Shown: positions 12,895-61,120 of the stretch, piece by piece
How the letters are laid out: each line of letters begins with the position of its first letter
How positions within the stretch are numbered: the stretch's first letter is position 1
DNA from: Saccostrea cucullata
Lineage: Eukaryota
Reading direction: 5' to 3'
DNA: 64,000 nucleotides
Assembly: GCF_032062105.1 (NCBI RefSeq)
Contig: NW_026923231.1
Coordinates: 62,001 to 126,000 of the forward strand
Position numbers and translations under genes: made by a program
Notes under the pieces: generated by a model
Databases searched by the model: none
What the model saw: only the letters and a program-made list of their open reading frames with translations
What the model was told of the DNA's origin: nothing

Positions 12895-14665
12895 CTACCA
12901 AATTTTCACCATTTCTAGACTTTTTCTCGTACTAAGATTCTTATCCTCTATTGTCTGATAAGTGTCCTGCTCGATAACTTGGTCGATTGTTGCTTTTTTC
13001 AATCGTTTTAACTTTTTCTTCGCCTTTAAGCTTCCATAAACTGCCAAGGCAATGATGACACACAATGAAAGACTAAGCACAATTAGCGACATATGGGATG
13101 GCATTCGGCTCTCCTTGTTTGCAAGGACTGTCGTGAAGTCACCTGCATACTGGGTTTGATTTGTAATGTTGAGATCTGTAAAGAATTTACGTACAAATTA
13201 ATAGCTATAGAAGGAAGATATAAAGAGTTTTTGACTTTGGAATATTATTATATCCATTTTAATCGTAACTGAAAAGTGAGCCCAGCTGAATTCGTTCTAT
13301 CAGATGAGCAGTTAAGTTGGTAAAGAGCCACTTTTTTACTGAATATTTATTATTATATGAAATATTGTATGTTTATCTGAAAGAGTCGCCAGTAAAAATA
13401 AAAAAAAACATTAACAAACATTAAAACCAGCACCAACCATTCTTAAGAGTACTTCAACTTATCATCATTTTGTTTGTCCTTTAATTTGAAATTTTCCCCT
13501 CACTATAATTTAACAATGCTTATTTACTGAGTATATCTCATAAGGAACGGGATTCAGAATGTTAAAATCAAGTTACATATACATGTAGAAAAAACACATT
13601 TTTTTCAATATTGTCGTCGATTTCCTTAACACTTTTCCACCAAATTTAATTTGTCATTAAGGAGATGTTTTTTTTTTCTTACGTGTGTTGTAAAATAACT
13701 TACCTTGTAGACTAATGGACTGGTATGATCACAAAAAGAATAAGGTGGCTATCTCTTAAGGTTCACAAAAACCCGTATTCTTTAACTATTTCTCTCTTTT
13801 TTTATGTTGAGATACATGTAGATTTTGGCAAAATTCTCAAATTTAATTTACTCATTCCTCAGCTCTTCACCAGTTTACATTATATTATTTTTGAACAGAC
13901 TCAATTCAATTTGGTTTTTGTAACTTATCAATAACTTAAACATGTTTAGATCAACATAATAAGTAAAATAATAAATTCAGTACTTACGGTCAATACTGCT
14001 TATTGTTTGTAATGTCAAGGTTGAGCTTTCATTACAGCCTGATATAAAATCACAGGTATCATTGGAACAATTACACACATCTTGACACCTCAATCCATAA
14101 CTAGGATACACACACTTTTTCGTGCAGTTGATTCCCGAGAAACCGGCTTCACATACTACAGAAGTATGTTTTAAATTGCCAAAATTATATTTAAGAAGAT
14201 ACGAGCTGCTGTATCAGGGCAATTAAAGTATATTGAGACATTAAAAAAAATATTTTCTCCGTTATGAATTCGCAGCAGCTTATGAAAATTAACATTTTTA
14301 GTAGAAAAAAGCTTTATAGACATCATGTTAAGCTTGAAAACATTAGGCATGCAAAAAGAAACTGCTTCCTTGCTTGAAAATTAACCTGTACAGTTTTCTA
14401 TATTGTTATTCCATTGATAACCAGGACAACAACCACCCGGAAAGCTGCAGAAAAAAAAAATTATAGCATTTTTATCGATATGGACAAAAAAATCCTTTGA
14501 GTTAAGAATGTATACAATTATTTTCCTTTATTCCCTAACGTTTGGAAATCTTTTATGGATGAAATGAATAATATCTTACCCTTTACACATGGACTGACTC
14601 CAAATAGATCCAGTCTTTAAGAAGCAGATAAGAAATAATTTCATTGGAGTTATTTTTGTTGTCAT
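12895..14665 (-). CDS. Receptor gene A: MEGF10/Nimrod-like single-EGF type I membrane protein, 197 aa; exons 14665-14580, 14444-14386, 14155-13988, 13175-12895
   Basis: All introns are GT-AG, phases 2,1,1 are consistent, and the 594-nt frame is open: MTTKITPMKLFLICFLKTGSIWS (signal) QSMCKGFPGGCCPGYQWNNNIENCTVCEAGFSGINCTKKCVYPSYGLRCQDVCNCSNDTCDFISGC, then stalk, TM (SLIVLSLSLCVIIALAVYGSL), KAKKKLKRLKK, and DTYQTI in the tail. Confidence 0.85.
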
Positions 14666-15269
14666 TCTTAAAAAATCGATTAAATAGAATAAGCAAATAC
14701 TTTATTGCAAGAACAAGGAAGAATGAGAATATTTTTATTCATGAATTTCCTCAATATATCGTACAAGTAGGTGCTATATTTGTGCTCTATACGTACATCA
14801 ATCTAAAATACATACGAATACATGATTGTGCTAACTATATAGAATTAAGGAAACGTGCTTTTGATTTGTAATAATTTTATTTTTTTTTTGTATTCTCGCC
14901 TCTCACTGGTTGATTTCCAAAAAGGAACGCAATCTTTTTTCGTAAAATCTGGTTTTGTATGGAGACACACCCCCTTGGCGACCAGCTTTATATGTATCAT
15001 CTTATCCATACAATCCTCTCATTTCCGATGCTCGGAATCCATGGAAAATTCAATATTTAATAAACGTACTTTAACTTCAAACAGTAAGTCAATCTTACCT
15101 CATGTAAACAAACATCATAGCTGCTAGATCAATGTATTAGTTATTACCTACTCGCTTCTCATCCCTTCCATTACTACGGTAACGTTGTATCATTGCGCGG
15201 TAAATTTGAACTCATAAAAAGCAACATAATTTTACATTCAAAGTTGTTTAATTATTTTAAAAGTAAGTA

Positions 15270-15440
15270 ATAAGGAATGATTCTAATTCTTGGCCAATTT
15301 ATCGAGTATAATCTGGTTTGGGTCAGTTTACACTTTTTTATAATCCGCTTCAGTTTACGCTTTTTTTTAATCCGCTTCGTAAACTTACCCAAACCAGATT
15401 ATACTCAATAATTTGGCCAAGAATTAGAGTCATTCCTTAA
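15270..15440. mobile_element. Short fold-back (palindromic) element, TAAGGAATGA...TCATTCCTTA
   Basis: About 60-bp inverted arms with an internal duplicated AATCCGCTTC unit. Confidence 0.75.
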
Positions 15441-16386
15441 AAGCATTAAAGAAAACAAATTGTTAACAAACTATTCTTAGAAAAAAAACAACTACTTTTC
15501 AATTTAAAATCTAAAACAGATACTCTTAGTTAACACATTTTTACAACAACCCCCGACTAGTGGAGTTTCTAATAGCGTTTAATTAAAAACAAAAAGAAAA
15601 TACAACTCAACTTTCTAATCCTTCCGATTCCATGAAGTCATCTGAAAGAAACCCTGAAAAGAAAGAAGCAAACACTGACCTCTAAAACACCAGAGGTGTG
15701 ATAGTGCTTTTGGGAGTAAGAATATAATTGTCAGGCACAGGAAAATCCATCGACACTCAAAAGTAAAAAAATGGCCAAAACGTATGAAAAACTTAAGTTA
15801 GTACTTGACTTAATAAGTGTTTTAATTTACTGTCAGGGACATTGTATTGCCTGAAAATTTACAAATTGATTTCTTTTAACAAGATTGTTCATATTATTGT
15901 TTCATAAACTTGTTTGTCAATAACTTGTATTAAGAAATTGTTCATACGTAGAACATACCCTTGCATTTCAAACATAGAGATATGAACCAGATATGCAATT
16001 TATGATCAATTGCAAATTGCATTAACTTTGAAAAAACTTACACACTCGCTCTGTCAAATCCAAGAGGCTTTATTCTATTTTCGTTTTATTTTATTTCAAG
16101 ATCTAAAGAACATTTTGATGTATTTTGTAAACCTTTTTTCTTAGAAACCCAAATGCTGAAATGGGCAAACGTACAAGCTTTTGAGGCTTCATACCACGGA
16201 TATTGATCAGCAGGAAGTAATAAATGCGCGAGTAAAAATTATTAATCATTTTATATAAAATGTAAAATGTGAACAAGTAATTCAACTTCTGTGGCTTTTT
16301 ACATTTCTTACATAAAATTATTTGCTTCAAAGTATTCTGTCTTCTTGTTCATTTTTAACGTTCATCCTAAAGTTTTTAAAAAACTT

Positions 16387-17486
16387 CGCAGGTACGTTAA
16401 GGCTTCCCAGAGAATACTACAGTGTACTCTGTGCATACACTTCTCTGAACTACAAATGTATGACGTCATAATTGAAAATGACGTCAAGTCACTGCGAAAT
16501 GAGGGAGAGAGTGTCATAAACCTTACATCGTATTTCACTTTGTATACAAAGATGTAGAAATAAACTGTGAAATCACAATTTTTATGGGGGTTTAATTTTC
16601 GTGGTTTTCGTGGTGTAAAGAGACCCATGAATTCATGTCCATCACGAAATGTAAAATGTGACATACATAACTGCTCAACAATTCTTCATCCACGAAATTA
16701 AATCCCCAGGAACCAAGAGTTTTTCTACAAACCACGAAAATTTGACACCATGAAAATATGTGATTTTACAGTAGTTTAAAATAAATATTTTAAAATAATA
16801 TCTTTTAAATATTAATGTATCCGAATAATTCAGATAACTTTGTTTTATTACTTTTGTGCAACAGTCAGAATGTTTAAAATACATACGAAAATAAACGTTT
16901 GAAATATACCTTTTTTTATACTAGTGGATAGAGGCAGAACTCATAAAATGTGCATAAAAGAGTCTGGCGCAGGTCATTATTGAGGATTAATTTGAGATGT
17001 TTTGTTAAAATCTGTAAGAAGAGTCTCCCCTCTATCTGAATCTTGCTTGGGAAAAATGTATGATGAGTTTGTTTTAAAACGATATTGAGCGGAACATATC
17101 CTTAGATATGTCGATAAGTTGAGGTTAATGTAAAATATTTTGTAACAGAGTAATAGTATAACTTTTCCCAAGCATATTTCGGGTTCTCAAGGATGCAATG
17201 AGTTTATTTACATGACAAAAAGTTATAAATAATTGATTTATAGCGCTGCGCCGATGCTATATAATATGTGAAGCATTCTAAAAAGGTAAGAATTACCGTC
17301 ACGTGATCAACGAGGTTATATGATATCGTAACAAATATGTTTATATGTAGGCTAGGGAACTCTCTATATAAATTCGCCGTATTTAGGTACATAACTTAAA
17401 ATTAAAACTTAAAATCGACCTTACAATGCAGTGATACGTTTTAAACGCATTTAAAGCTATATATGGGACACCTTAACAGTACTGCG
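16387..17486. mobile_element. CGCAG-terminus TIR element, 2-bp TSD TT; carries a nested MITE
   Basis: CGCAGGTACGTTAAGG...CCTTAACAGTACTGCG with TT on both flanks. Confidence 0.7.
16565..16771. mobile_element. Tc1/mariner-type MITE (CTGT...ACAG) with CACGAAA subterminal repeats
   Basis: Inverted termini CTGTGAAATCACA / TGTGATTTTACAG, followed by TA. Confidence 0.7.
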
Positions 17487-18403
17487 TTTTTTCATATTTA
17501 ATGTGTTTTATTAAGCTATTATGCTAAATTGCAAAATCGCCTGAGAATATCAATGTATACAATATGCCATAAACAATTCAGTCATTACGCGTTCATTAAA
17601 GGTCATAGCTTTTTCAACAACAATTGAGTGTAAGCTATCACAAGTGTCCATGTCTACAACATGCAATATTTGTCGCCTAGAAATTTTCGATATGATGTTT
17701 TCGTTTAATTTAAGATGTCAGTTTAACATGATAAAATTTGTGTCTCATTTCATACCCTTCCTACTGGAATCTCTCCAACTTTTTTATCAATATTAATTAT
17801 CAGAGGAATTTCCATTGCCATTCACACATCGAACATCGGTTATCACAACTGTAAAAAAAATTCCCGACAAGAACATTGTTACAATGATACTGATAACAAG
17901 TAACCTTTCAGAGAATATACCTTCGAAATAGAAGCCTCTATGTCACAGGGTCAATCGTTTCAGAAAAACGCTGGATTCGGTTATGATGTTTTATTGTGGA
18001 TAACAAAAAAGAAACCAGTTATCCAGTATCATAAAATAATGAATATTATTATAATAGTGATCAAGGCATCGTATAACTAGTTGGCTTCATAAATGGTTGG
18101 ACCTCATTAACCGTGTAGGTAAAAGCTAATGGATATCTTATTTGGTGGGATAAGCGCTTATATAGTGCACGAAGTTAGTATACATGCATATTAATTATCA
18201 GATAGATGTCTGTCATTGTTACACTGGTCGTACTCGTATACCTGGTCGTTTGGGAAGCTAAACATAGAAACATCACGTGACAAACAAAACATTCACACAT
18301 GGCACTCATTCACACAAACAGCGCTACGTTTGATTAGCTAATCAAATATGAATTATTAACAGAGTATATAATTAAATATCAACTCTGACATTTATATCAA
18401 AAT

Positions 18404-18748
18404 AAACTAGAGTTTCTGTGAGCGATGAGCTCACTAAATGATACCCTCCGCCTCCATATAGTTAATATAATTGCAAAGTCCATGTTTTGCTGTGACCGGG
18501 AAACCCAAAATATGTGTCGGATCAAAAAGTAAACAAGAAGGTCCAAAATTGCAGTATGTAATAAAGATTCTGTGAAAGTTTCATCAAATTTCATTCAGTG
18601 GTATGAGAGGAGTTGCAGATAAGAGATGGGTATCCCAAAGCGTAACAGACGGACGTAAGGACGGACTACGGAGGGACGGACAGATGTACAGACGGACGGA
18701 ATTAACGATTACTATATACCCTCCCGCTTTTCAAGCGGGGGGTATTAT
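18404..18748 (+). mobile_element. Helentron-associated non-autonomous element (HINE)
   Basis: AAACTAGAG start, (GACG/GACA)n microsatellite, 3' hairpin CCCGCTTTTCAAGCGGG. Same family as 28534-28878. Confidence 0.8.
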
Positions 18749-19029
18749 TAGGATACATGTTACTATACAATATTAATAGAAAAGATAAATTAATTATTTA
18801 AACGTGTGACATGGCAGAGCTGTAGGATGACAAGGTATTTTTCTGCGAGAGTTTTGTTCCAGTTATATGATTTTCGAATGTGCTATGCAGTGTTGGTTAT
18901 AGATTAAAAGTGTAACATATATATTTTTTCTATCATGCGCCGAATCCTCTTTATTTATCTATTTACTCCTTTGAAACAAAAAAAAAACAAACTTTACAGT
19001 CTCTTATTACAGGCAATGGCGAATGTCAT

Positions 19030-19032
19030 CTC

Positions 19033-19066
<34 letters not shown>
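19030..19066. repeat. (CT)n microsatellite
   Basis: Read directly from the sequence. Confidence 0.95.
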
Positions 19067-19143
19067 TAGTTGACGTTTGATTAAAATGCAAAGGATCGTC
19101 CGGGTAATAAATTAAAATTTCAATGTTTATTGGTTCGTTGTTA

Positions 19144-20364
19144 CAGTGGTCGGAACGTTGTTGTTGACAAACCAATCGTGTAGAATCGTTCGTGTATCGT
19201 GAATGATCGTTCGTGTAACGTGCGAGATCGTTCGTGTATCAGACTCAATCGTCTGCGTTTTTAATTGTGCGAGATCGTGCGTTTAGAATTGTGTAAATTT
19301 CGTTTTGTAAGTTTTTATCGGAATGTTATTTGTAATATAAGCATTTCCCTTGTTTGTTTTTCTAATTTTATTAATTAAAATCCAAATAAAATGAAAAAGC
19401 GCAACTTACATAATAGAATGCAGAACGAACTAATTATCGCCCGTAAACAAGCAATATAGTAATTCGTACAATATTAAGTTCTCGTCAAATAGCGCAATCA
19501 ATATTGTTATAAACCGTACTTAGATCTTTAACGCCTTTTTGAAAAATCTGATTTTAATTATTATTTACTTCTTATTGTGGTCAAGATAATCTTGAAATCA
19601 ATTCATTGAAAATAAATATATTTTTTTTTAGAAAAAAATAAACATTTTGCAATGCATACATAACTAGTTAGTCGACAAATATACATGGACACGGCATGAT
19701 TTTCGGGAGTTTTGATTATCTGTGTTTATCTCTTGAGCCTATTTGTAATTAATTAATTTTAAATTTCTGCAAATAAAAAAGTTGAATAATTGGCAAGTTT
19801 ATCAGACATTGAATCATTGGAAACATAAGGATAAAATTTGTAATATTATAATTTAAGTCATTCCATGCTGCCATTTTTGTTCAATCGTATCCCCCTTTCT
19901 GCATATCATGATATCCAATTCAATCAAATTATACGACCCACATACATGTACATTGTCTAATAGAACGAACAAAATCTGTTTTTTTTTTTTTTTCAGAGAA
20001 TTACCTTAGAAATAATTATTTTATATCTAAAATATTAAGTCTTGCATATATTTAGTTACAGAAATATCATTTTCCGTTTTTTTTTCTTCAAAGTCTATGA
20101 AATAATATTGATAATTCTTTGAAATCTTAAATAAGTATTAAGCCGTATTTCGTTTTGAAAATATCAGATTCCTAAATATTTTGAACTATTTTGGGTGAAG
20201 AATCGTGCGTTTGCGTCAGCAATCGTGTAAGATCGTGTCACGTGTACAATCGTGAACGTGAAAGATCGTTCGTGTAACAGGTTTAATCGTGCGTTTATCG
20301 TGCGGAATCGTTCGTGTAACGTGATCGTTCGTATACGTTGTCAACAATAACCTTCCAGCCACTG
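19144..20364. mobile_element. Non-autonomous TIR element (CAGTGG...CCACTG), TA-flanked, with GATCGTTCGTGT subterminal repeats
   Basis: TA|CAGTGGTCGGAACGTTGTTGTTGACAA ... TTGTCAACAATAACCTTCCAGCCACTG|TA, with ATCGT(T)CGTG arrays near both ends. Confidence 0.8.
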
Positions 20365-20731
20365 TACGTCTACGATAACACAATGTTTAAAGTCAATGAT
20401 CATTCAAGTTCAATAATTTCTTCCAGAAATTGTTTGATTGAAGTATGATTTAGTCCCTAATTGTACAAGGACTTGAGCATGGTTATTAAAAATCAAAATA
20501 GAGGTTTGACCTCATTCATATAAAAAAAATAATTTATCCTGAAATATACTCTTCAAAAAAAAAAAAAAAAAAAAAACAAATAAAAAACGCATAGTAGAAT
20601 TTTATTAACACATTGTACATAAAGATTATTTAGTAAATTGATGCATTGATGAAACAGGAACAGGAATACCATTTAAATGTCATAATTACACAACAATTTT
20701 AAAATTATTGTCAGTTTAAGACCATTAAAGA

Positions 20732-21723
20732 TTAATAAATGGTATGCCCCCTGTAGACACCTATGATAGTCACAAACGGCATCTAATTGAAGCAAACATG
20801 CGTAATAAAAACTGTATAGGAATACTCTACCACTCCAAATGTAGAACTTTGGTCAGCTGTTGAAAAGTCTGGGGATGTGATTGTCTTTGGCAAATCCTGT
20901 CCATCCTTTTTGTGCAATGCTGCTTAATTTGAATTAAATCTACTGATTTAGATGACTGTGATAGAAACAAGTTGCTGTTGCTTTGCAAGAACTGGAGTGG
21001 TAAACGAGCCGTATGTAGCTGTGTATTGTGAGACTGCAATACGGATGTAGGGTGCTGCAAAGTTAAATGGACATGAGTAGGTAGAACATGGTTAGAGCAC
21101 CCTTTTCCATCAAAGTCCATTGAATTCGTACCAAATCAATCTTACTTTCTTATAGTACCGTTTTCCACATCATTACACTACCACCACCAACTGTTTTAAC
21201 ATTTATTACAAGGCAATGGCACTTTTAAATTTATAAGAGGCTTTCAGATAAACATTCTGGACAAGTAGCTAAACCAAAATGTTCAGCAGTGACTCTGTGG
21301 TCATACTCTATTGATCTGAGATATCTGAAATCGATATTTGGGGTGTTATGGGATCAACAATGGCATGAATAATCCTCTTGCAATAATTCGCAGTCAACTG
21401 AAAATGGTCTTTTTATATGATCTGTGAAGTTCAGGGATAGCTAATGCTTTAGATGACGTCATTACATTACATTCATACAATTTACGTAATCCTCTGAAGT
21501 GATGCTGTGCTGCTGATGTCATATGTAGTCTACCATATTTTTTTTGCGAACATTACGTGTTAGATGTTAATGATTTATGTTTTATAGATTAGATATGGCG
21601 CTGTACGTAACATTAAAATTTCTTGCAATAATTATTGTAGATTTCGGTGCCTCTGCTTCCAGTCTGCCATTTTCCTTTTTGTGTTATGCGACATTCAGAT
21701 GCAGCATTTTTAGGAGGCGTCAT
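20732..21723 (-). pseudogene. Decayed near-full-length Tc1-type transposase
   Basis: Minus-strand fragments in the expected order: 'NGRLEA...IARNFNVTYSAISNL' (HTH), 'VKTVGGGSVMMW', 'LQSHNTQLHTARL..QFLQ...SKSVDLIQIK...QRQSHPQTFQQL..VLHLEW' (compare FQQDNARPHTAR...SPDLNPIE), and 'GHTIY*'. Multiple stops and frameshifts. Confidence 0.8.
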
Positions 21724-22211
21724 TGTTCAGATAAAATTTTGCAAAATCAGGTTTTTTTGTCTTTGAGACTTGTAGAATAGCTATAAAGTTAACAATTGCA
21801 CTAAAAAATCACGCATTTCACTCGAATACATCATATCCAATTAAAAGAAAAGGTAAGACAAAACTATCATACATTTTTCAGGGCATTGTTACTATTATGC
21901 GTTTCTTTTTTTGAAGAGTATACAAAAATAGGAATGATGTAGTTGTAATTGCTGCTATATGTAAGAGAGGAAAGAGAACTCTGGGTCAGCGTTATCTACC
22001 TAAGGTTACGTTGAAGCAAAGGAATAATTGGGATTTGTAAGAAATGTTGGTAATTTCTCGTGCAATGGATGGAATATTAAAAATATTAAATTAATTAACG
22101 AAAGAAAATGGGTGAAATAAATTTCTTTTGTTGTAGTTTAGCCTATGGCTATATAAGAATAATATTTGTCATTATTATTATTATTATTATTTAAAGCAAA
22201 GTAAATGCATC

Positions 22212-22327
22212 TCATTTGTTATTAAACTTTTTAGGATATGTATACATAAACCCAACCAAAACGCTTCTCTCAGAGTTACAGGATTTACAACTTTGTGGCA
22301 GCTTAAATCTTAAAATTTCATAACGTT
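22212..22327 (-). CDS. Candidate non-TM terminal exon for gene B (xRYEILRFKLPQSCKSCNSERSVLVGFMYTYPKKFNNK*); frameshifted homologue at 29169-29282
   Basis: Acceptor tattttctacag| is conserved in both copies and only the phase-1 frame is open. The homologue shows synonymous changes and the same stop, but has a 2-bp deletion. Confidence 0.4.
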
Positions 22328-22384
22328 CTGTAGAAAATATTAACATTCAACAACCTGCCTCTAAAATGCATTTAAATAAAAATA

Positions 22385-22589
22385 CTGTAAATGTAGTATA
22401 TTTGGCGTATATGATATTTGGTGGAAATTCATTCAGCAAGTTAGCGTAGATTTGATTTAGCGCTAGCTGAATATGCATCATATAAATGTATGATACATAA
22501 GACATTTGGCGATGTACTTGATTCAGCGGACTCTGCTTTCCGCCAAAATTGCTAGATAGAATACACCGCTATATGTTGTACGTTTACAG
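22385..22589. mobile_element. TA-flanked MITE (CTGTAAA...TTTACAG); partial copy at ~41123-41210
   Basis: Terminal inverted repeats; absent from the paralogous site near 29335. Confidence 0.75.
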
Positions 22590-23443
22590 TATTTTTTTTC
22601 CTAATTTTTCCAATTTGTCTAAAGAAGCAATATGTCAAACTATTATTTAGATTTATAATGATTATATAATAAATCGTATGTTCTTTCAAAAAAAAGGTTT
22701 AGACGATAAATACTTGTATTTTAGCCAAAAAAGGGTCGGTAATCGAATTCCACGAGATTACTTGGGACTCAAAGAAGTGGAAACAGAATCAATACGTTTT
22801 ATTTCGGTAATTGCATTTTCTACTCCTTTACTTCGCCTTCATATATTCCTACCAAATTCCTGTGCCATTAAGATAATCCATTGTTCAATCATTTAAAGTT
22901 CTTTTTCGATACATATTCTTTTTACAACTCGTACCGATAAATTACTTACATGTACCAGCGCCATTATGTTTTCTTTATATTCATGTGAAATATTTATTGT
23001 TGTTGTTGTTTTGTTTACCTATATCACCCTCTAGATTTTTACACTTATATTGAGACGCCACCACTTTTCATTGAAGGCCTTAATTTATAAAAAATACTCG
23101 GACCTTTGACCACTGCTAAACGAGATCTGATTTAGACGATATCAAATAAAAGACCGGTCACTATGTCCCGCAGTGGATTTTAAACCTGCAACTTTAGAAT
23201 TAGCTCCTTTCTCCATTACTTTGGAACAGACGTTCTTTCATGTACCCTGTGCCAAGCTGGTAGCGACTTTATGGTTAAAAATACGAATAACGTTAATGGT
23301 GCAAGAGATTTAAAAAAAAAACAATATTGTCGTTAGTAATATATAAGTCGGATCTTGTTACCACCACCTTTTCAAAAAGTATATAAATTTAAGAATGTAC
23401 CTTTCTCTTTATTGTTTTTAAAAATAAGGTTCTTTGTACTTAC

Positions 23444-24492
23444 AACGGACGCTTCCTTCTTTTGTGTACGCCTTTACTGTTGAACTTTCATTACAGCCTG
23501 ATATAAAATTACATATATCATTGGAACAAGCACACAACTGTTCACACTTCAATCCATAACTTGGATACACACACTTTCTCGAGCATCTTATTCCCGAGAA
23601 CCTGGATTCACATGCTATAGAAATATGTTTTAAATTGCTAAAGTTATGTTTAAGAAGGTACACGCTGCTTTAATAAGGACGATTTTTGCACATTGAAACA
23701 TTTACAAAAATACTTTTCCTTTGTGAATTTTCATCTTCTAAAGAAAATTAACAATTTCAGTTGAAGAAAAATCTCTATATACGTACATCATATTCTCATT
23801 GAAAAAAAAATGCTCATGCAAGAAGAAATTGCTGTTTTTCTTGAAAATTAACCTGTACAGTTTTCTGTATTGTTATTCCATTGAAAACCAGGACAACAAC
23901 TATCAGGAAAGCTGCAGAAAAAAATTATAACATTTTCATCAAAATCGACAAAAAATCCTTAGTTTAGAAAATATATTCTATTACTTTTCATTTTTTTCTT
24001 CAATTTTGGAAATCATGTATTTAAGAAATAAATAAATTCTTACCCTTTACAAATGAGCTGACTCCAAATATATCTAGTCTTAATATCTTATATCCGTTAT
24101 GAATACACATCTTAAGAAAGTAAACAATTTCAGTAAAAGAAAAAAGCTCTATGTACATCATATCATCATTGAATACAATTCTCATACAAGAAAAAAAAAT
24201 GTTTCTTTGCTTGAAAATTAACCTGTACACTTTTTTGTATTGTTATTCCATTGATAACCAGGACAACAACCACCAGGAAAGCTGCAGAAAAAATTATAGC
24301 ACTTTTATCAAAATGGACAAAAGAGTCCTTAAAAATGTACACTATTACTTTTCCTTTCTCCTTCAAATTTGGAAATCATATATTTTAGAAATGAATAATT
24401 TCTTACCCTTTACACATGGATTGACTCCAAATAGATCCAGTCCTTAAGAAGCAGATAAGAACTAATTTCATTGGAGTTATTTTTGTTGTCAT
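23444..24492 (-). CDS. Receptor paralogue B (ectodomain only): exons 24492-24407, 24281-24223 (2a) or 23911-23853 (2b), 23614-23444; no TM exon found
   Basis: Intact signal exon (MTTKITPMKLVLICFLRTGSIWSQSMCKG), two intact 59-bp CCPG[YF]QW exons, intact 171-bp EGF exon with GT-AG sites. A truncated second exon 1 lies at 24044-24083. Confidence 0.7.
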
Positions 24493-25967
24493 TTTCAAAG
24501 TTTCAAATAAATAGATTCAGCAGGTACTAAATTGCAAGTACAAGGAAGGATAAGATCTTGTTTAATAAATTTCCTCAATATATCGTACAAGTATGTGCTA
24601 TATATATGTCTGACATATGTGCACATCCACCTGAAATATATGCGAATATACATGTGTCAACTACTTGAATATAGAAATAAGGCTAAGACAAGTTGTGAAG
24701 TATTTATAAAATTGTCATTGTTATAATGTTGTGAAAAACAAACTGGTCAAATACTGTTCTTAAAACACAACATGTTTTCGTCAAATACAAATCAGGAAAG
24801 GTGTAAACACGGACCTTTAAAGCATCAGAAGTCGGACAATACCACAAATTTATGAAAACATAATCTGCAGGCATAGGCAAATCAATGGACGGATCAACAT
24901 CAAAACAATTGCCAATAATATTAGTTTGGTAAACTTCAGACAGCATTTTACTAGATAAGTTTTTTTTATTTACTGAAATGTCCATTGTATATGACTTTAA
25001 ACAAGATTGATCATATTATTGTTTCATAAACTTGTTTGTCTCTAACTTATATCGCTTAATAATCAGTTTATACATAATTATATCATGCCCTTGGATACCA
25101 AACTGAGAGATATAAACCTTGTTTGCAAGTGATAAGGGAATAATGTTTTATAAGCAAGGGAATCTAACAATTTAAGAGTTTAAGCTTTTACCTGTATATG
25201 TTTCGTAAAGTTTTTAAAAGCTTTTTGTTTAAATAATATACCAAAATATGAATTACATTCGTCAAAGTCTGTACAATGATTTTAACTTCAAGTCCACTGG
25301 TATATATTGTTGACATCTGAATCTAAATCACTCTATACATGTAGTTGTTAATTTATAATACGTCGTCCATATATCTAAATACAATTTAAAATGACATTTT
25401 TAAAAGAAAAAGTATAGTTAGGGGTTCTATTGTACCAATAACATTGATTGTTTTCAAAGCTATGGACTTGGCTCAATATAAATCTGATTATATACATGTA
25501 TATATGAATGTGAAGAACCATGAAAGATTATGGGATGAAGTAGAAACATCCTGAGAATACTAGAAGGCCATAATGATCTTGGCATTTTTCTAAATTTCAA
25601 ACAGAATTAAAATACCTAATATGACTAATTTCAGGGGTAATTTCTCATTAGAAAGCAGTAATCACCGCCTTTGCCCACTTTTCAGATATTTTCACAATTT
25701 TTTAAACATTATTTTTACAATTATTTTTAATTGTGTACGATCCTTTCAAAAAAATCTTAATTTTTAAAATCTTCATGGGCACTGTTTGTGCTCTAAATTA
25801 TCTGAAAGAAAATTCAACTGAAAATTGAAGTCTTCTGGTACATGTAGATTTTTAAAAATACGGGAAAATGAACTAGTCTACTTAATGATGTCACAATTAG
25901 CATATAAGAGGTCTTATAGATATAAAAAAATTGTTTATTCTTAATTAATGGAAATGGGACTTCTATG

Positions 25968-26167
25968 AATAGACCCTTTCACGATAACTGCAGTACTGCT
26001 CTTTTGCAGGGCTACATGTTATATCTTGGTGAAATATGACGTAAAAGTACATGTACATGTAATTGTTTAGAATATGTCATTTAATTATCTATCAACAAAA
26101 ACTTCGCCAAACGTTATTAATTTGCCCTGCAAAAGAGTTGTACCGCAGTTGTCGTGAAGGGACTATT
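25968..26167. mobile_element. MITE with ~45-bp TIRs
   Basis: AATAGACCCTTTCACGATAACTGCAGTAC...CTCTTTTGCAGGGC versus GCCCTGCAAAAGAG...GCAGTTGTCGTGAAGGGACTATT. Confidence 0.75.
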
Positions 26168-26419
26168 AAGAAATTGTGGATTTTTTTACGTTACTTCCAT
26201 CTTATATAAATTACAGGGTCAAATATGTATTGGAACTGCATTTTGTTCCTTAAAATATTTAAGAATGAAAAAAGAAAAAAAAATCTAATGGACAGACAAT
26301 GGAAGGCTCTGCTATACAAGCAGTATTTTTCATTGCCTATGACCTAAAAGTGTGTCATGCTATAGAAATATAAATCTAAGGATAATCGGGGTAATTAAAA
26401 GACATTGGGATAATAATTA

Positions 26420-31800: not shown

Positions 31801-32009
31801 ATAAAAATCCCTGCAAGATACATCTTTTCTTTCAGAAATTGTGCCAGAAAAGTTTGAAGTAGGTATGGGAATGATCAACATTGAACTTGCTGAGGCTCTC
31901 TTCCTGAAAGTGACTTGACCAGATATTTGGCTACCCAGTATGAGGTACAAACTAATCATTTGTTGTATAACTTATTGTGTATGAGATTGCCACCATTTAC
32001 TGGAAGTTT

Positions 32010-38100: not shown

Positions 38101-38242
38101 GCGTTGATAAAGACCAAACAACAATATTTCTCTAAGAAATATAAAGTCGTATGTGATAACCACCGTCTAATCAAAAAGTATATCAGTTTAAGAGTTTACC
38201 TTTTTCTTTCTTGTTTTTAAAAATAATTCCCTTTGTACTTAC

Positions 38243-52507: not shown

Positions 52508-53425
52508 CTTGTTGATCACTATTGTTTGTCCCTACACAATATGTTTCGCGGGTTTGTTAAGGCAGCACATGAACCAGAATTCGGCGAATTAACACTTTTT
52601 TATAACATGTAACACTAATAAATCGGAAAAGTCATGGATAAATCTTTTGCTATCATTATGCATTCTACAGACGTCAATGAGACATACTACAAGAAGCACT
52701 TTACCACGAGGTCACCACGTGATGTTCAAAATTTTAAAATAAGACCAAAATTACAAATACATTTGACAATGCAAATCAGTTAATTAGTCATCTTTTTTAT
52801 TCGAAATACATTCAAAAGCTAAGAACACAGAAATTTGGTACATTTAATTAAAAAGATATTGAAACATTTTTGATAAGCTAGCGTGCCTTATAAAAAATAA
52901 TGCAATGTGTGAACCTAGGGTCAGAGGTTCATGTGTAGTAGGGGTACTGCTGAATATTACTGATTAGTTGAAGTGCATTTTTTGTTTCCCTGCCCTGCCT
53001 ATGGGTATTAAATAACCAAATTACTAGTAAGCAATTGCTAAGTGTATAGTAATGGTTAGCAATGGTGCCTCTTTCAACATTGTGTATAACATAGCATCAA
53101 GTTTAAAACATGAAGCAATTGAATCATTTGAAAGTTGTTGAATGATGCTCAGGTGACCTATAAAGCCCATGGGTCTCTCGTTTTTTAAGAAAGCGGAAGA
53201 CAAAGAGTCTCTGAATTATTTTGTTTTACTTTCAATTTTCAAAATTTTAAAATAAGACCAAAATTACAAATACATATGTCAATGCCACTCAGTTAATAAG
53301 TCATCTCTTTTATTCAAACGCTAAGAACACACTCAGTAATTAGGTATCATTATTTGTCAAAAATCATCCATTTTTCATTTAAACTGTAAGAAATCTTAAT
53401 TTAAAATTAATTTTTAATTTTCTAG

Positions 53426-53976
53426 AAGATCAAGACTGTAACATCATTCCTTAATAGTTAAGAAATAATTTTGTTACTTGATGACCTATATCTAGTTCAA
53501 AGATACATGTAACAAAGTATTCCAATGTTGTTTGTAGTGAGTTCTATCACGCAAGTTATGGTTAGCTTACATATTTCTATGGGACCACAATGTTTGATTT
53601 AGTTTCAGTAGTAATAAATGGGATGGGGAGTTGTGTAAATAAATCAAAAAAAAAAAAAAAGATATCTCAAAGGGCTAAGATTAGTAAGGCTAGTGTTGCA
53701 CGGGCTTCATCAATTATATATTAGCTGAATATTATTCAATATCCCTGCTTGATTTGAAGGAATTAATAAGACACGCATTAAGATGTTTGTAGTTTAGAAG
53801 AAAGTCCAGAAGAAATGAACTCATATAAACTCATTCTAGGTAAAGACGTCATTCAGAATGACATTACAGAATCCATGATGGAGGAACTAGCCAATCTAGA
53901 GTCGCAGATTGATCAAATTAACTTGACCATGAAGGCAATAAAAAGGCATTTCTCAAAGAACGATTCTGCTAGTTAA
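53426..53976 (+). pseudogene. Orphan duplicates of the two ROCO terminal exons (53426-53454 and 53783-53976), frames still open
   Basis: EDQDCNIIP* and DVCSLEESPEEMNSYKLILGKDVIQNDITESMMEELANLESQIDQINLTMKAIKRHFSKNDSAS*. The 60-bp exon is deleted here and no COR exon is visible upstream. Confidence 0.6.
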
Positions 53977-54836
53977 GGAAATATTTTTCAACGAAATAAT
54001 TTCCGGCGCTGTGTCTAAAATTGGTCTGCTATTTTTTATGCTTCCTTGTTTAATTTGTTGGAAACAAACCTCTTGTGACGTGAAGCTATTTCCTGGATTG
54101 GAAGAGAAATTGCCAAAAAACAGTACAAAAATTGTTATACCGACAATTATTTCCATGTGTTTGTTCATATTTCAACTTTAATAACTAACAGAATTGAAAT
54201 ACTGATGTTGAATGTTCGTATACACAGAGAAACTATCTTGAACTATAAGGAATCAGTGTTATTCTGAAATTTCGACAAGTACTAAATAGTATTTCAATTT
54301 TAACAGAGTTACAGAGAATGTATTTTTTATTAAAAGAAAGGAAATAGTTGCAAACATGCAAAAGTACATGTTATTTATCTTGATTGAAAAGCATATTTAC
54401 TTATTCATTTCCTTCTGAAAAGATTATGTACCAATATCGTCATTGTCTATTCTTCAGCTCATCAATAGTGCATTGTTGAAATGTCATATTAGTCATGAAT
54501 ATAGGAGATATCAAAGGAATATGCGTTTCTTTTCGTCCAGAGCTGCTGGTCTCGGTAAAGTTGTATTTAAGGGAATGGCATCCCTGTATGATGTCACAGT
54601 AAAAAAGTCATGCCCAATAGAAGAATGTCTTTTGGAAGAATGCTTTTAAATAAATATAATGATAAATAATGTTAGGCAAAAGAATTGTAAGTATATACTT
54701 TTTTTTTATAAAAATTCAGCATCAGAATTATGCATTTGAAAAACTATTTTCAGGATTTTTTTTTTGGTTTTAATGTTAACATTTCGCTTGTTTAATAAAA
54801 TAAATGTATCTCATATTAATAAATATGACAACCCTT

Positions 54837-56310
54837 TGTTACAACGCGAAATGTAATAACAACGCGAAATGTAATAAACCTGGATTATTACATTTTACGT
54901 TATTACATTTTGCGTCGAAATCAGCGCAGAATGTAATTGCACAAAATGTGATAACACGCTTTTGTGGATTATAACATTTCGCGTTATTCCCAAATTTTGC
55001 AGAAAACAGATCCATTACAGATTTTTCCTATGATTTACATGTACTGATTACATTTTGCATAGAGATCAACACAAAATGTAATAAAACGATTTTTGGATTA
55101 TTACATTTTGCGTTGTTACATTTTGCGTCAAGATTAAGCAAAAGGCAGGGACGCAAAATGTAGTAACACACTTCATTCGTCAGTCAGATTGAGTACAATT
55201 TTCAATATTGTAGTTGCGGATTAATAGAAAATAAAACAAAATGAAAAAAGAATAGATATATGCAATGTCTTTTAATTAACACATTTTATAATATATTTAT
55301 TTTATTAGCTACATGTATTGAGAATCAGCTTAATAAATGTATTCAAATTATAGGTGTTGCAAATTTGAAACCTGCATCTGTGGGTATGGTTCTTGGAGGG
55401 TATTGATCAGTGTGCCTTTGCTTTTTTATAGACAAATGCAATGGATCTTAAAATTAAACTATTCAATATATATATTAATTGCACTGATTATGGCGGGAAG
55501 GAGTGTATTGACAATAATGATACTATATTGTTCCATGCAAATCTCCAGCATTGCAGACGACCAAAAACAAAATTCTATCTCTCTCTTTCTTTCCATCCTA
55601 TAATAAAATGGGTTATTCCTGCATGTCCACAGTAATACAATTATAAACATACGAAGTAAACACCACACCCTTTCCCTGCCCCTCCTCGCTTGGCACACAC
55701 ATACGCTTCTAATTTGTTAACCAATGTATACATGCCAAACATGCATATCAAGAGCTTTTAATGAACCTATCTTTGTTAATTAAATATGTGTTATTGTTTA
55801 GAAATTTAAATAAATATGCCAATCAAAGTTACATTAATAATGTATAATTAAGTACAGTGTAAGCAATATAACTAAAATCAGAGTCAGAAAAACGATACAT
55901 TTAGATGTAATTATGTCCGTAAAAGCCCTAACGTTGGTCTCGATCATTGTTTTAGTTCTAAATATTTTCACAGCATGTTTCCCATGTTGGTTACATGTAT
56001 ATATTAAAATCGATTTTATGATCTTTTTTGTAAAACGCAATAAATATTTTTTTTATATTTGTTCTTAGTATTACATTTTGTTTTATTACATTTTGCGTTG
56101 TCTTCAGTGCAAAAATAAAATAACGCAAAATGTAACAACGAAAAAGTATGTTATTACATTTTGCGTTGATCTCGACGCAAAATGTAAAAATGCAAAAAGT
56201 AATAATCTAACAATCATGTTATTACATTTTGCGTTGATCTCGACGCAAAATGTAATAACGCAAAATGGTTTATTACATTTTGCGTTACTATTACATTTCG
56301 TGTTGTAACA
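54837..56310. mobile_element. Unclassified TIR element (TGTTACAAC...GTTGTAACA), 6-bp TSD ACCCTT, with ATTACATTTTGCGT subterminal arrays
   Basis: TIR, TSD (54831-54836 and 56311-56316) and repeats read directly. Confidence 0.85.
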
Positions 56311-57574
56311 ACCCTTACATTTATTTGCAATAACCGATATTTAAATCTACGCTGTATTTCATGAAAATAAAAGCAGTTTTTGTACCGTTTTAATTGCGAT
56401 GCGGAAAGATCTTAATGCCAAAATGTATTCAAATTTCATATTTGTTTATAATATACATGTAGGATGATTAAAATTATATTGTACATTATATGTACGAAAC
56501 ACAAAAACCTACCGTGTTGTTTCAAAAAGGAGTATCTCAAATGCCACAAATTAACAAAGTTTACTGGTTTTAGTAGAACACAATGTGTCGGAAACGAAGG
56601 AATGAAACAAAAAGTAACGAGAATTTCGGAAAGATTCTCAAAAAATCTTATTTAAATTTCAAGAGCATATATTCATTATTTTTTTTCTCTTGTAACATTT
56701 TTATAATCCCTCTTCAATTGTTTTAAGTTATCATAACGTATAAAACGCATGTTTACGACGTCAATCTACCTATCAAATGAAAAATCGTCTTAAAAAAATC
56801 AATTATGTAAAAAGAATTAATTTAATTTTCCAGCCCGTAGTATCCTAATTTTGTGCTTGTTTTAATTCAGTCCAAATTGTTTTTTTAAATGTAAATACGC
56901 CTCATTTTACAACTTTTCGCGAAACAATACTCAAAAACCCCTAAATCAGTCAAAAAAAATTCCTCATTGACGTATATAAATATATGTCCTGTACTTAAAT
57001 AGTCGTATACTATAAATACATATAAACTATGCTTGTTAGGAAATTCAGTTTTTGTATTCAATTTCAAAGGAGTTTCACTGTTTTACGTGTTATATGAAGT
57101 GGATAACAGTTCCTGTTTTGGTTTTAAAATTACTCATGAAATTTATTCCAATTTATTTATAATAGCATTCGTTTGAAGAAATAAATATTTCATTTATTTT
57201 GATTTTCTTTACTAGGGAGATTTTGGTAAATTTTCATTAAACAAGACAGATTTTTTTTCAGATAACATTTAATTTGATAACCCTTTAGTTTTTTCTTATA
57301 AAGTTATAAAGTTTTGTATTTTTTTTTATTTTTTGTGAAAACTACATGTTCATCCTTTCGTCGCACTGGAGTAAATTAAGCTAATGTAAGTCACCGTATT
57401 GTGTAAAATCTCAACGAGGAAATTATTTTCGAGTTGTGTATATTAATCAGCTGTTCTGCTTTGTTGATATCCTTTTATTAGAAATTGTATTAGAGTTAAG
57501 CTTTCAGAAAGTTAAGTACTGTGCATTCTTCAAAATATCCAAGATTATATTACACGTAAAGCAAGTGTCTGAAG

Positions 57575-58448
57575 CACAGGGGCCGGTAACATACTGTATT
57601 TGATTTTACGTAATCACTATATGTATACAAAAAGAGAAAGGGAAACAACATCAGCTCGAATTTACACAGGATCGATCTCAGAAATGACTCGTGTTTTCAA
57701 TAAAATACCTTGCAGTTTGTGAACTAACGTTTGGGATCATTCCGTAATAATCACTCTTTAATGAAAATACCATCGCGGTCATTTAAGAATCGTGTAAGTC
57801 GGGTTTTGCAGATCCGATATCCTGTCATAAAAGTGATGTAGTTTAAGTCGTCCACTAAATTCGCTAAACACTGCATCCAATATTTAACAGGAGATGTGAT
57901 TGGTCAATAGTTCTTTTCTAGAACAGATCTGACCAATCACGCTCCGCCTTTACTAATCATGTTTTTTTTTCCAAAATGTCGTCTTTTCTGGGCTCGAGCC
58001 TCTATGTGAACGAAAAAAGCTACCGTATTTATTCAAATCGGAGATGTTGTACCTTTTAATTGCAATAACAAAAGAAAAGTATGATTTTCGTGAACATTGG
58101 ATCTTAACTTTGTGTTTTCCATCTCCGGAAAAACTGGAGAAAATGTGCAAATTTTGCTTCGTTTTAGTGGACGACATAAATTACATCGACTCGCACAACG
58201 GGATATCGAGTTAGTATTACCCAACTTAAACGCTATAAATAGTAACGAGTTTTCTGTTTATTAAAGAATATTTATTGTGGTATGATTTCTAGTTATAATT
58301 TAATTGGCTACATTCTTTTTTCTATGAAATACGAAACATTTCCGAGATCGACCCTGTGTAAATTCGGGCTGACGTTGTTTCCCTTTCCTTTTTTGTATAT
58401 ATATAGTGATTACGTAAAATCAAAAACAGTATGTTACCGGCCCGTGTA
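57575..58448. mobile_element. TIR element with ~110-bp TIRs and 8-bp TSD GTCTGAAG (hAT- or P-like)
   Basis: Inverted ends GGGCCGGTAACATACTG...GATCGATCTC.GAAATG, TSD on both flanks, empty site near 11200 in the paralogue. Confidence 0.85.
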
Positions 58449-59022
58449 GTCTGAAGGTATTTTTGAGTAAAATTACAGTTTACATGTACATGTTCTCCTT
58501 CTTATGACAACTAAATATGTTCTTCGATGTATTAAATACAAAGTGCGTCACTCGATAACTACATTTGTAACATTGTGTGCTTTATAATTTGTAAGATTTA
58601 AATTTTGTAGAAATTTTGTACATGTGCACTATTTCATTATTTGCGATGAATAAAAAATTTTATCCTTCCTACATTTTTTAGTTCACAAAGCAAGATATAA
58701 ATGTGATGTTTTGTAAGATTTGTTTTTTATCACCTTAAAAATATTCAGGATATTGTCAAAAGTTTATTTTTTCACTATTTCAGATGCTATGAGTTTGGAG
58801 TTCATTGCTCAAAAGAACAATGGTCTGACAGCGTATTTTAAAAAAAACAGAAAATGGTATTTACTCCAATGTATGCACATTTTGAAATTAACCCTTTTAA
58901 AAATCTGACCTCGTATATTGAGCATAAAGAACAAATACGAATAATAAAAAGAGCTGTAAGGTAGTCAAATTAAAATGACTAGCTAAATAGAAATAAATAA
59001 AATGTCCCGGTCTTTGTTACTT

Positions 59023-61120
59023 CTACCACACATTCCTGATTTCTAGACTTTTTCTCGTACTAAGATTCTTATCCTCTATTGTCTGATAAGTATCCTCTTC
59101 AATATCCTCTTGGTCGATCGCTGTTGTTTTCAATCTTTTTAACTTTTTCTTCACCTTTAAGCTTCCATACACTACCAAGGCAATGATGACACACAATGAA
59201 AGACTGAGCACAATTAGAGACATATGGGATGGCATTCGGCTCTCCTTGTTTGTAAAAACTGTCGTAAAGTTAAAGTCATCAGCATACTTGGTTTGATTTG
59301 TAACAACAATATCTGTAAGGTTAAGTAGGAATTAATAGGTATAGAACATGTAGAAGGAAATGTTCTTGACTTCGAAATGTTATTAAGAAAACCTACAGTA
59401 ACTTTAATCGTAACTGAAAAGAATGCCTAACTGAGTTCGTATAAAATGAGCAGTTAAGTTGGTAAAGAGCCAGTTTGTACTAAATATTTATTACTACATG
59501 AAATATCGTATGTTCATCTGAAGGAGCCAGTAAACACAAACAAGTATTAAAACCAGCACCAGCGATTGTTACAAGAGTAAATCCACTTTGTATGTCCTTT
59601 TAAAATTTCCTCTAAAGTCACCTATGCGTACATATTCGTAATCTTGCATAAAGATTGGAGTTCAGTAGGTTATAATCAGGTTGAATATTATACATGTGAA
59701 CACATTTCTTCCCACCAAATTTGTCATTAAGGACGATGTTATTTTTGATGTTGTAAAATAACTTACCTTGTATGCTCAGAATATGATCACAATAACAAGG
59801 AAATGGTGGTTAACTATTAAGGTATATACTTCAATTTAGATTTTCTTGTTCTCTATAAAAATCTTGTGCAAAAATAAATTTTGGCGGAATTCTGCATTCA
59901 ATTGACTCACTCCTCGGATCCCTACCAATTAACTTTATATAAATATTGCATGTAGTTCATTGTAACATTAAAAATCTTCACCCCAAGAAAACCATTCTTA
60001 ATCTGCGCCTCGGTTGACAATGGTTTAATTGGGGTGAGAATTTTCAATGTTACGCTCAACTACATGCAATATTTATTATATAATAGTGAATGTTTTATAC
60101 AACTACACATAACAGTGAACCGTGCGCACAGTAATTCTGCGCAGTCGCTATTTTTTGGAATATCTCCCGTCGTCAAGCAATGTTGACTGTTGCTACGCTG
60201 GAGGGCGTGTCTTCTTTATTCGGCGGGTAATAGTGATTTTAACAAATGTTTCTCGACCAATCAGATTCAACTAATTTACATGAAAGTATAATATTGACTT
60301 TACCATAGATCTAGAACAAGCTCAATTCATTTCAAAACTTCCAGCATAACCATAACTCAAAACATGTGAGGATTAACATAATAAGTACAACGATACATTT
60401 GGTACTTACAGTCAATTTTGCTTTCTGTTGTTTGTAATGTTAGGGTTGAGCTTTCATAACAGCCTGATATAAAATCACAGCTATCATTGGAACAAGCACA
60501 CTTCTGTTTACACTTTAATCCATAACTAGGATACAAGCATTTCCTTATGCAGTTGATTCCCGAGAATCCGGCTTCACATTCTAAGGAAGTATGTTGAAAC
60601 AACTAAATAAGAAACTTAAAGCTACTTTAACCAGGGCTATATAAGCCCACTGATAAAACATTTAAAAAGTGTTTTCTTTATTGGGAATTCGTTTCAGCAT
60701 AATAAAATTACCGATTCCGTAGAACAAAAACTCTCAATTAATTATTATTATCATCATTGAATAAAATAAGAAAAGGAAGAAAGAGAAACAGTACTATTGT
60801 ACAGTTATAAGCATTGCTCAAGCAAGAACAAAACTCCTCTTTTGCTTTAAAGCTCACCTGTACATTTTTCTGTAATGTTATTCCATCGAAAACCAGGACA
60901 ACACCCGTTCGGATATCTGTAAACATATTTTTATAAAAAATTACAAAAGGATTCCTTTAAGTAAATTATGCCACTTATTTTTCCCGTCAAATTTGGAAAT
61001 TATATCCAGGAAAAAAACATGATTAATTTCTCACCCTGTACAGTTGGATTGTCCGCAAATTGGTCCAGTTTTAAAGAACCATATGAAAAGTAATCTTATT
61101 TGAGTTATTTTTGTTGTCAT
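59023..61120 (-). CDS. Receptor gene D: MEGF10/Nimrod-like single-EGF type I membrane protein, 201 aa; exons 61120-61035, 60916-60858, 60580-60410, 59312-59023
   Basis: GT-AG introns with phases 2,1,1 and a 606-nt open frame: MTTKITQIRLLFIWFFKTGPICGQSNCTGYPNGCCPGFRWNNITEKCTECEAGFSGINC...SGC, then stalk, TM, KVKKKLKRLK and IEEDTYQTI. Confidence 0.85.
59935..60293. mobile_element. Second copy of the palindrome-bearing element, in intron 3 of gene D
   Basis: Similar to 248-620; absent from intron 3 of gene A. Confidence 0.75.

Follow-up and report, generated by a model that had tools for sequence, protein, structure and literature searches.

A tandem cluster of putative miniature EGF-repeat surface receptor genes, two intact and two apparently decaying, in the oyster Saccostrea cucullata

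The window analyzed here, a 64,000-nucleotide stretch of Saccostrea cucullata contig NW_026923231.1, contains four related gene copies, A to D, that probably form a tandem array from a large family of miniature EGF-repeat surface receptors in molluscs, evolving by birth-and-death, with A and D working and B and C decaying. A (12.9–14.7 kb) and D (59.0–61.1 kb) are intact four-exon genes that are already annotated in RefSeq: the proteins built from our coordinates are identical, letter for letter, to Saccostrea cucullata proteins named 'MEGF10'.

Cluster layout

Copies A to D are all encoded on the minus strand and, as noted in a preliminary description of this DNA, share exon sizes (86, 59 and 168–171 nt) and phases; the exception is exon 3 of C (181 nt). 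The phases are 2/1/1 and the introns have GT-AG ends. Exon identities of 73–98% together with colinear introns exclude chance resemblance by a wide margin, and a family profile run against the six frames of the window recovered only exons of the A–D cluster at E < 0.01. The membrane/tail exon is restricted to A and D (281 and 290 nt up to the stop, 88% identical), as also proposed earlier; tblastn with both exons turned up no further copy in the window, the remaining matches having E values of at least 2.6. Overlooked in the earlier description, B is composed of two pieces, the C-like B1 and B2; B2 has an additional exon 2 and the remnant of an exon 1, which brings the exon 2 copies in the window to five. 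The features are as follows (minus strand unless stated).

12011..12894, A 3' UTR, approximate end; RNA contigs over 12011–12963
12053 and 12029, AATAAA/ATTAAA hexamers in the A 3' UTR
12895..13175, A exon 4 (coding): encodes stalk, membrane helix, basic stretch and YQTI tail up to the stop
13988..14155, A exon 3, 168 nt: EGF-like cysteines 50–89, stalk start; RNA-covered
14386..14444, A exon 2, 59 nt: CCPGY lobe
14580..14665, A exon 1, 86 nt: ATG, putative signal peptide, Cys27; matches RefSeq XP_062601840.1
5735..13762, no strand, A 3' flank: blocks ~72–83% homologous to the D 3' flank (53200–59823), a segmental duplication
22181..23443, no strand, B 3' flank: homologous to the C 3' flank (37047–38242 and 29138–29814), not to A/D intron 3
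23444..23614, B2 exon 3: frame open, cysteines complete, invariant Gly53 to Arg, donor intact; no membrane exon of its own found
23853..23911, B2 exon 2': additional CCxG exon copy
24044..24081, B2 exon 1 remnant: 3' end only, donor intact
24223..24281, B1 exon 2: in RefSeq isoform X3, spliced to A exon 3
24407..24492, B1 exon 1: C-like piece, part of RefSeq isoform X3
38243..38423, C exon 3: +10 nt, frameshift, premature stop; pseudogene
38641..38699, C exon 2: Cys34 to Phe
38839..38924, C exon 1
59023..59312, D exon 4 (coding): encodes stalk, membrane helix and YQTI tail
60410..60580, D exon 3: matches RefSeq
60858..60916, D exon 2: matches RefSeq
61035..61120, D exon 1: RefSeq XP_062601838.1

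Coding exons in the 3' flank common to A and D were considered and rejected, the frames being broken in both translated blocks. An orphan frame at 44.3 kb had no usable match in the Atlas.

Intact copies A and D

A and D encode type I membrane proteins of 197 and 201 residues, respectively, each with a leader (a putative signal peptide), a 12-cysteine CCxGY/EGF-like head, a stalk, a single membrane helix and a YQTI tail. In the head, about 24 residues with four cysteines precede the EGF part, and each protein has ~1.5 repeats in all; the CCxG motif reads CCPGY in A and B and CCPGF in D, and is lost in C. Hydropathy peaks at 2.6–2.7 (positions 133/136), and the helix, spanning approximately residues 133–151 in A, is also present in the predicted model, where the Ser/Thr-rich, disordered stalk has a pLDDT of ~50 versus 91–97 for the head. 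The 46-residue tail carries its single YQTI after acidic residues, and a motif scan found neither NPxY nor a full ITAM in either tail. Between A and D, dN/dS is lower in the membrane block (0.26) than in the head (0.64), with few sites behind both ratios. A and D are EGF-repeat proteins and not EGF receptors, the label under which the cluster was originally described. Pfam searches with single exons and full proteins returned no EGF or EMI match. The top structural match of the modeled head was SCARF1, a weak similarity (Z 3.4, rmsd 3.0 Å over 44 residues), and no match in the fold searches reached E ≤ 0.001 or Z ≥ 5 (Foldseek E at least 0.13), which is no proof of a new fold.

Decaying copies B and C

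B and C appear to be 5'-partial duplicates undergoing decay rather than soluble partners of the membrane forms. Their homology to A and D ends just past the exon 3 donor, beyond which A aligns with D and B with C (scores 263 and 186), whereas A/D versus B/C comparisons score 27–32 against shuffled maxima of 28–36, that is, do not align. In C, as already recognized, the frame is shifted: a 10-nt gain in exon 3 leads to a stop after 75 codons. Cys34 and Gly53 are invariant in 66/66 aligned family members; C carries C34F and B carries G53R, substitutions that each occur in none of these 66. Exon 3 of B is still open with all cysteines, and the A–B dN/dS of this exon is 0.56 (few sites). A scan that recovered the membrane exons of A and D found, in the interval between B and A, no hydrophobic exon of compatible phase. 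Downstream of C, two overlapping membrane-exon candidates near 34.0 kb were judged to be due to chance, as was another candidate at 47.6 kb, inside a simple repeat. No database record covering C was found, and a weak search found no protein record containing B exon 3. Damaged, partial copies beside intact ones fit the birth-and-death turnover that had been suggested for the cluster.

RNA evidence

The RNA comparison drew on four of 24 listed runs, from four studies, and on a stretch that, of the four copies, covers A and B. The joint between A exon 3 and the membrane exon (13988–13175, 812 nt skipped) is present in all four runs and backed by three raw reads in run X19, in which A is weakly expressed (~1–2x depth). 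Because depth in nearby bins of run X1 is zero, the X1 signal at A does not come from genomic DNA. The exon 1–2 and 2–3 joints of A were absent among the 15 of 60 joints listed. RNA contigs cross introns 2 and 3 of A, those over intron 3 in three runs, and in X1 the depth is 4.45 for intron 3 versus 11.3 for the spliced form. The exon 3–4 joint and the separate ATG/leader exon of each copy bear out the description of separate miniature genes and rule out one long multi-EGF gene. For exon 3 of B, depth is zero in X19 and X1 and almost nil in a third run; in X6, the bin with most of this exon has a depth of 9.19, near the 10.6 of A, an ambiguous signal. At position 14084, the RNA of all four runs disagrees with the window, and the donors may simply lack B. 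With B exon 3 uncovered or nearly so in three of four runs, damaging changes in B and C and no database protein with B exon 3 in the weak search, the soluble partners postulated earlier find no support.

Relatives and known systems

Related proteins form 1,300 sequence clusters at 50% identity, and their commonest layout is the one-unit form; novelty had therefore been overstated, the more so since neighboring secreted and membrane CCxGY genes are described for insects in PMC4073527. Mean identity at non-cysteine head positions is 31% (63 relatives). The motif Y[DEQ]x[LIV], chosen with that of A in view, occurs in 24/64 tails versus 7.0 in shuffles (maximum 16), and NPxY in 1/64. The family is almost invisible to Pfam: an EGF-family match at E ≤ 0.05 was obtained for one of 66 members and an EMI match for none, the EGF part being likewise missed. 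The family profile nevertheless matches EGF repeats in the PDB (6u11, E = 5e-13; Tie2, E = 5e-5) with cysteines 50–89 aligned, and the Atlas ranks mollusc clusters first and MEGF10/11 and draper next, in line with the MEGF10/Draper-like cysteine pattern reported before. A metagenome scan yielded 69 pattern matches, none confirmed. A literature search, with most subscription journals and supplements outside its coverage, found no paper on the miniature family.

The three RefSeq 'MEGF10' isoforms are identical to D, A and a join of B1 to A; the name is automatic, and D and A represent two distinct copies of the gene. A and D resemble MEGF10/CED-1/Draper in the type I single-pass topology, in a CCxG[YF] motif ahead of MEGF10/SCARF/Tie-type EGF cysteine spacing and in a tyrosine motif in the tail. 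They differ in having no full N-terminal EMI domain, a module of ~75 residues, and ~1.5 instead of many tandem EGF-like repeats, with a single head and exon 3 spliced straight to the membrane exon. They also carry one YQTI, similar to the single YxxL of CED-1, in place of the ITAM of MEGF10/Draper, and no cytoplasmic NPxY, as that motif is defined in PMC8092387. The insect Nimrods (NimA, NimB, NimC and Eater) share the CCxGY motif and the clustering of anchored and anchorless paralogs, and include a short member, NimA, like the short A and D. However, the strict NIM consensus, as quoted from PMC4073527, is absent from A and D (1 of 149 matches carries it), and the anchorless oyster copies appear damaged, not functional. 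By membership criteria applied to the sequences, A and D would thus be placed outside both MEGF10/Draper and Nimrod. SCARF1, according to PMC11563577, binds its ligand further along a long ectodomain that A and D lack. For C. virginica, PMC13070813 reports dozens of hemocyte-enriched draper-like/MEGF-like genes, an expansion that would parallel the A/D family if it includes the miniature form.

Possible functions and alternative explanations

An immune role of A and D is plausible, and we lean slightly toward a hemocyte or epithelial receptor. The protein would sit on hemocytes or epithelia, its variable head binding a microbial or altered-self surface; clustering would allow a Src-family kinase to phosphorylate YQTI, which could then recruit Syk or, alternatively, act as a YxxPhi uptake signal. 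With one motif per chain, dimers or clusters would be required for Syk recruitment; oyster Syk is described as binding an ITAM receptor (PMC6994640). A and D would then function as a reduced version of a Draper/SCARF receptor while lying outside those families. The short Drosophila NimA, adhesive and not phagocytic according to PMC13076899, counts against a phagocytic reading and lends weight to a different possibility, to which we give about one chance in four: that A and D act in adhesion or development outside immunity, or are membrane-tethered EGF-like ligands shed from the stalk. The missing NPxY and full ITAM fit this, as does the presence of A in all four runs without a known challenge. 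Yet NimA adhesion needs the EMI domain that A and D lack, and the large expansion with divergent heads, the pseudogenized neighbors and the tail tyrosine motifs favor recognition receptors.

We consider it improbable that B and retained-intron forms of A and D are secreted heads that serve the membrane forms as opsonins or decoys, as NimB beside Eater. Read through its exon 3 donor, B would keep an open frame for 113 residues, including the leader and the full set of 12 cysteines, the RNA signals in X6 and over A intron 3 would accord with such products, and secreted AgNimB2 adjoins AgEater (PMC4073527); 22/53 single-unit relatives are without a membrane helix, but such database entries may be truncated predictions. 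The mosaic structure of B, its substitution at an invariant glycine, the empty exon 3 bins in X19 and X1 and the missing protein record all speak against it, and a downstream terminal-exon candidate does not keep the same frame in B and C. Somewhat less doubtful, yet still unlikely, is a cassette locus in which B1 exons 1–2 provide an alternative promoter and 5' module spliced over ~10 kb onto A exons 3–4. RefSeq XP_062601841.1 (isoform X3) equals exactly this combination, letter for letter, and does not match C or the exon 2' versions; the phases of B1 exon 2 and A exon 3 are compatible; and in X19 the bin of B1 exons 1–2 has a depth of 0.48 where the B exon 3 bins have 0. The swap would alter three residues of the CCxGY lobe (I44T, E45K, N46K), with a gain in basic character and a shift of an N-glycan site from residue 46 to 42. 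D, A and the B/A form are isoforms X1–X3 of one product with near-consecutive accessions, but the grouping of D with A suggests merging of paralogs in the annotation, for which two neighboring Anopheles Nimrod genes, wrongly merged, offer a precedent (PMC4073527). Moreover, only 7 of 145 nt distinguish A from B1, which means that reads of another A allele, or of C, could land on B1. The splice would have to skip intact B2 acceptors, no B-to-A joint appears among the 15 of 60 joints listed, and no independent X3-type protein was found. Isoform X3 thus reflects either a genuine alternative 5' cassette or mis-mapped reads. There is only a small chance that partial duplicates such as B1 provide variable leader/CCxGY-lobe exons for the constant EGF, membrane and tail exons of A; such cassettes would diversify a Pfam-invisible family of mollusc miniature receptors with tyrosine-based tails, numbering over a thousand sequence clusters, into a possibly major and so far unrecognized innate-recognition repertoire acting via Syk.

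Under the preferred reading of a birth-and-death receptor cluster, the A–D locus is ordinary oyster gene duplication and decay, already annotated automatically. The miniature CCxGY-EGF-membrane-YxxI layout is abundant, and because it is nearly invisible to Pfam and labeled 'MEGF10', it would be missed by domain-count surveys and misread by disease-resistance studies. If B1 is indeed spliced to A, damaged duplicates would serve as alternative exons and offer a simple way to diversify receptors.

Gene models

The preliminary description reported four co-oriented EGF paralogues with common exon sizes and phases. In this AT-rich, animal DNA (GC 28-34%), a six-frame motif scan placed minus-strand exons with CCxG[YF] at 14431, 23898, 24268 and 60903 and minus-strand exons of EGF type at 14153, 38421 and 60578, and splice-site mapping confirmed the shared layout in all four copies, A to D (exons 1-3 of 86, 59 and 168-171 nt; phases 2/1/1). 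The reported restriction of the TM exon to A and D also holds: tblastn across the window with both membrane exons as queries matched these two copies and found no others, and a family profile (E<0.01; six frames, whole window) recovered exon 2 five times, exon 3 four times and the membrane exon twice. The frameshift noted in C is present, its exon 3 measuring 181 nt with a stop after 75 codons.

Exons of the two copies with a membrane exon
14665-14580, 14444-14386, 14155-13988, 13175-12895, minus strand: copy A, 197 residues
61120-61035, 60916-60858, 60580-60410, 59312-59023, minus strand: copy D, 201 residues

Intron 3 of A and D contains a conserved stretch ending AG|GTAAG (13700-13760 and 59760-59825, minus strand), a possible cryptic micro-exon, for which no in-frame version fitting both copies was found by eye.

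Other features of the window
2364-3533, plus strand: open frame of 390 codons in which Pfam recognises a COR-A domain (E=4.7e-9, above cut-off); probably the terminal part of a ROCO-type gene that converges on copy A
4881-5009: gap in the assembly, 129 N long
33793-34128, plus strand: open frame of 112 codons with a YEI motif
42733-43059 and 43939-44265: inverted repeat of 327 nt, perfect, its arms 879 nt apart, adjoining the next feature; a recent inversion or an assembly artefact
44249-44521, plus strand: orphan frame that looks like an exon for a stalk, a membrane segment and a short tail; neither Pfam nor the Atlas gave an assignment
46876-47447: 146-nt unit repeated 3.9 times in tandem, with a short-unit repeat after it

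Relations among the copies

The downstream flanks of A and D match in blocks over about 8 kb; the two copies therefore arose by segmental duplication. The flank downstream of B and C is a different one, common to both. Beyond the exon 3 donor, local alignment gave scores of 263 (A-D) and 186 (B-C), against 27-32 when A or D was paired with B or C (shuffled maxima 28-36). Introns 1-2 of A are 77-81% identical to those of B/C versus 70-75% to those of D; a membrane exon inherited with these introns should remain visible, so that B and C most likely never acquired one or lost it, judging from these alignments.

B is a mosaic of two pieces: 24606-24082 shows 94% identity to C, and 24081-23444, which is older and truncated at its 5' end, has an exon 2' of its own. 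An alignment of A, D, the RefSeq isoform X3 and 63 relatives (hand-picked from 149 matches for a short, single-head layout) shows no variation at Cys34 and Gly53; these residues are replaced by Phe34 in C and Arg53 in B. Counting against decay, B exon 3 is open and retains all cysteines, and its dN/dS relative to A is 0.56, on few sites. A protein search with B exon 3 gave two candidates, of which only the protein of A matched, which is weak evidence. The earlier interpretation as an innate-recognition family with possible soluble partners is partly supported: A and D are intact miniature receptor genes, and B and C appear to be decaying partial copies rather than soluble partners. Just upstream of C exon 1 lies a ~0.9-kb element with ~30-nt terminal inverted repeats (39060-39975), presumably mariner-like, which may have separated C from its promoter.

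Expression and RefSeq models

Four of the 24 listed RNA runs (X19, X1, X5 and X6) were compared with 11600-31400 at 92% likeness, a region containing A and B. The predicted joint of A exon 3 to the membrane exon (13988-13175; 812 nt, CT..AC) was found spliced in all four, supported by three raw reads in X19 and by a single contig in each of X1, X5 and X6; zero depth in several nearby bins of X1 indicates that its signal is not genomic DNA. Neither the exon 1-2 nor the exon 2-3 joint of A is among the 15 joints listed (there are 45 further). RNA contigs reach ~0.9 kb beyond the stop of A, cross intron 3 (depth 4.45 versus 11.3 spliced, X1) and enter intron 2, so splicing is incomplete. Gene A is spliced and weakly expressed, and its product is a small type I membrane protein. 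Depth over the two bins of B exon 3 was 0 in X19 and X1, 0.38/0.25 in X5 and 0.54/9.19 in X6, the last value being near that of the A exon 3 bin (10.6). The base at 14084 differs from the window in all four runs, and hence the RNA animals are not the sequenced one; they might lack B. Between C and B, 30591-31279 (plus strand) yields a spliced transcript (GT-AG joint 30876-31211 in X19, five reads, and in X5 and X6) with no long frame seen: a lncRNA, UTR or repeat-derived sequence.

Protein searches matched A and D to RefSeq proteins labelled Saccostrea cucullata. XP_062601838.1 (isoform X1) is D and XP_062601840.1 (isoform X2) is A, letter for letter; XP_062601841.1 (isoform X3) equals, letter for letter, exons 1-2 of B1, the C-like piece of B, followed by A exons 3-4. 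Names and accessions suggest a single gene record. Five residues separate X3 from A, and three of these lie in the mature head. Cassette splicing of B1 exons 1-2 to A exons 3-4 in real transcripts appears unlikely: because B1 and A differ at only 7 of 145 nt, mis-mapped reads from another allele easily explain X3. Run X19, in which the B1 bin has a few reads' depth and B exon 3 has none, is compatible with either reading. A and D were the only matches to X3 among 73 search candidates.

Protein architecture and family

AlphaFold modelled residues 31-90 with pLDDT 91-97, a stalk at ~50 and a helix from residue 132; the head alone scored 87.9. Fold searches gave weak matches to SCARF1 (Z 3.4, rmsd 3.0 A, 44 residues) and Tie2 (E=0.13), and in the family profile, cysteines 50-89 align with the EGF repeats in 6u11 (E=5e-13) and in Tie2 (E=5e-5). 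The head would thus comprise a CCxGY lobe with four cysteines, the remainder of one eight-cysteine repeat and the opening half of another, its 12 cysteines forming six predicted bonds, paired from the profile alignment and the standard EGF bonding pattern, not from the model. The tail carries a single YQTI preceded by acidic residues, and no NPxY. Between A and D, the membrane block has a dN/dS of 0.26 and the head one of 0.64.

Copies A-D belong to a large, auto-annotated mollusc family. phmmer relatives form 1,300 clusters (E<=0.001; 271 at 1e-10), none of them named; in the Atlas, the closest clusters consist of mollusc 'hypothetical proteins' 189-273 residues long (scores 0.92-0.96), followed by MEGF10/11 and draper. 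Among the best 150 relatives, A included, 133 have at most 300 residues, 85 have a membrane helix and 53 pair a single CCxG with a single EGF unit (31 of these with a helix), the single-unit count relying on crude patterns that undercount repeats. Of their 64 tails of at least 20 residues, 42 contain Yxx[LIVM] and 24 contain Y[DEQ]x[LIV], versus 7.0 in shuffles (maximum 16 in 500), although the latter pattern was picked with the tail of A in view and relatives do not count as independent samples. Of 66 aligned members, only one has an EGF-family Pfam match at E<=0.05.

The miniature family is nowhere described in the papers searched, and a term search found no 'EGF' in the main text of the Saccostrea genome paper (PMC6289776). 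MEGF10, Draper and CED-1 combine EMI with EGF-like repeats, NPxY and either an ITAM or YxxL (PMC8092387), whereas A/D-type proteins lack a full EMI domain and NPxY and have too few repeats; they also lack the NIM repeats that accompany CCxGY in Nimrods, whose secreted and membrane members adjoin and were once merged in annotation (PMC4073527). Tandem expansion is the norm for oyster immune genes (PMC4346834). The literature compared also included PMC9334734, PMC12021676 and PMC11563577.

Proposed function

C. virginica agranulocytes are enriched in the products of dozens of draper-like and MEGF genes, which may or may not be miniature forms (PMC13070813), and oyster Syk is reported to bind an ITAM receptor (PMC6994640). 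A non-immune role of A/D is possible, the short Drosophila NimA being adhesive (PMC13076899).

For the immune role, we propose that the variable, disulphide-rich head, on a glycosylated stalk, would bind foreign or altered surfaces. The proposal for the tail draws on the hemITAM and YxxPhi concepts: receptor clustering would lead to phosphorylation of its single tyrosine and recruitment of Syk or, alternatively, the tyrosine motif may act as an uptake signal.
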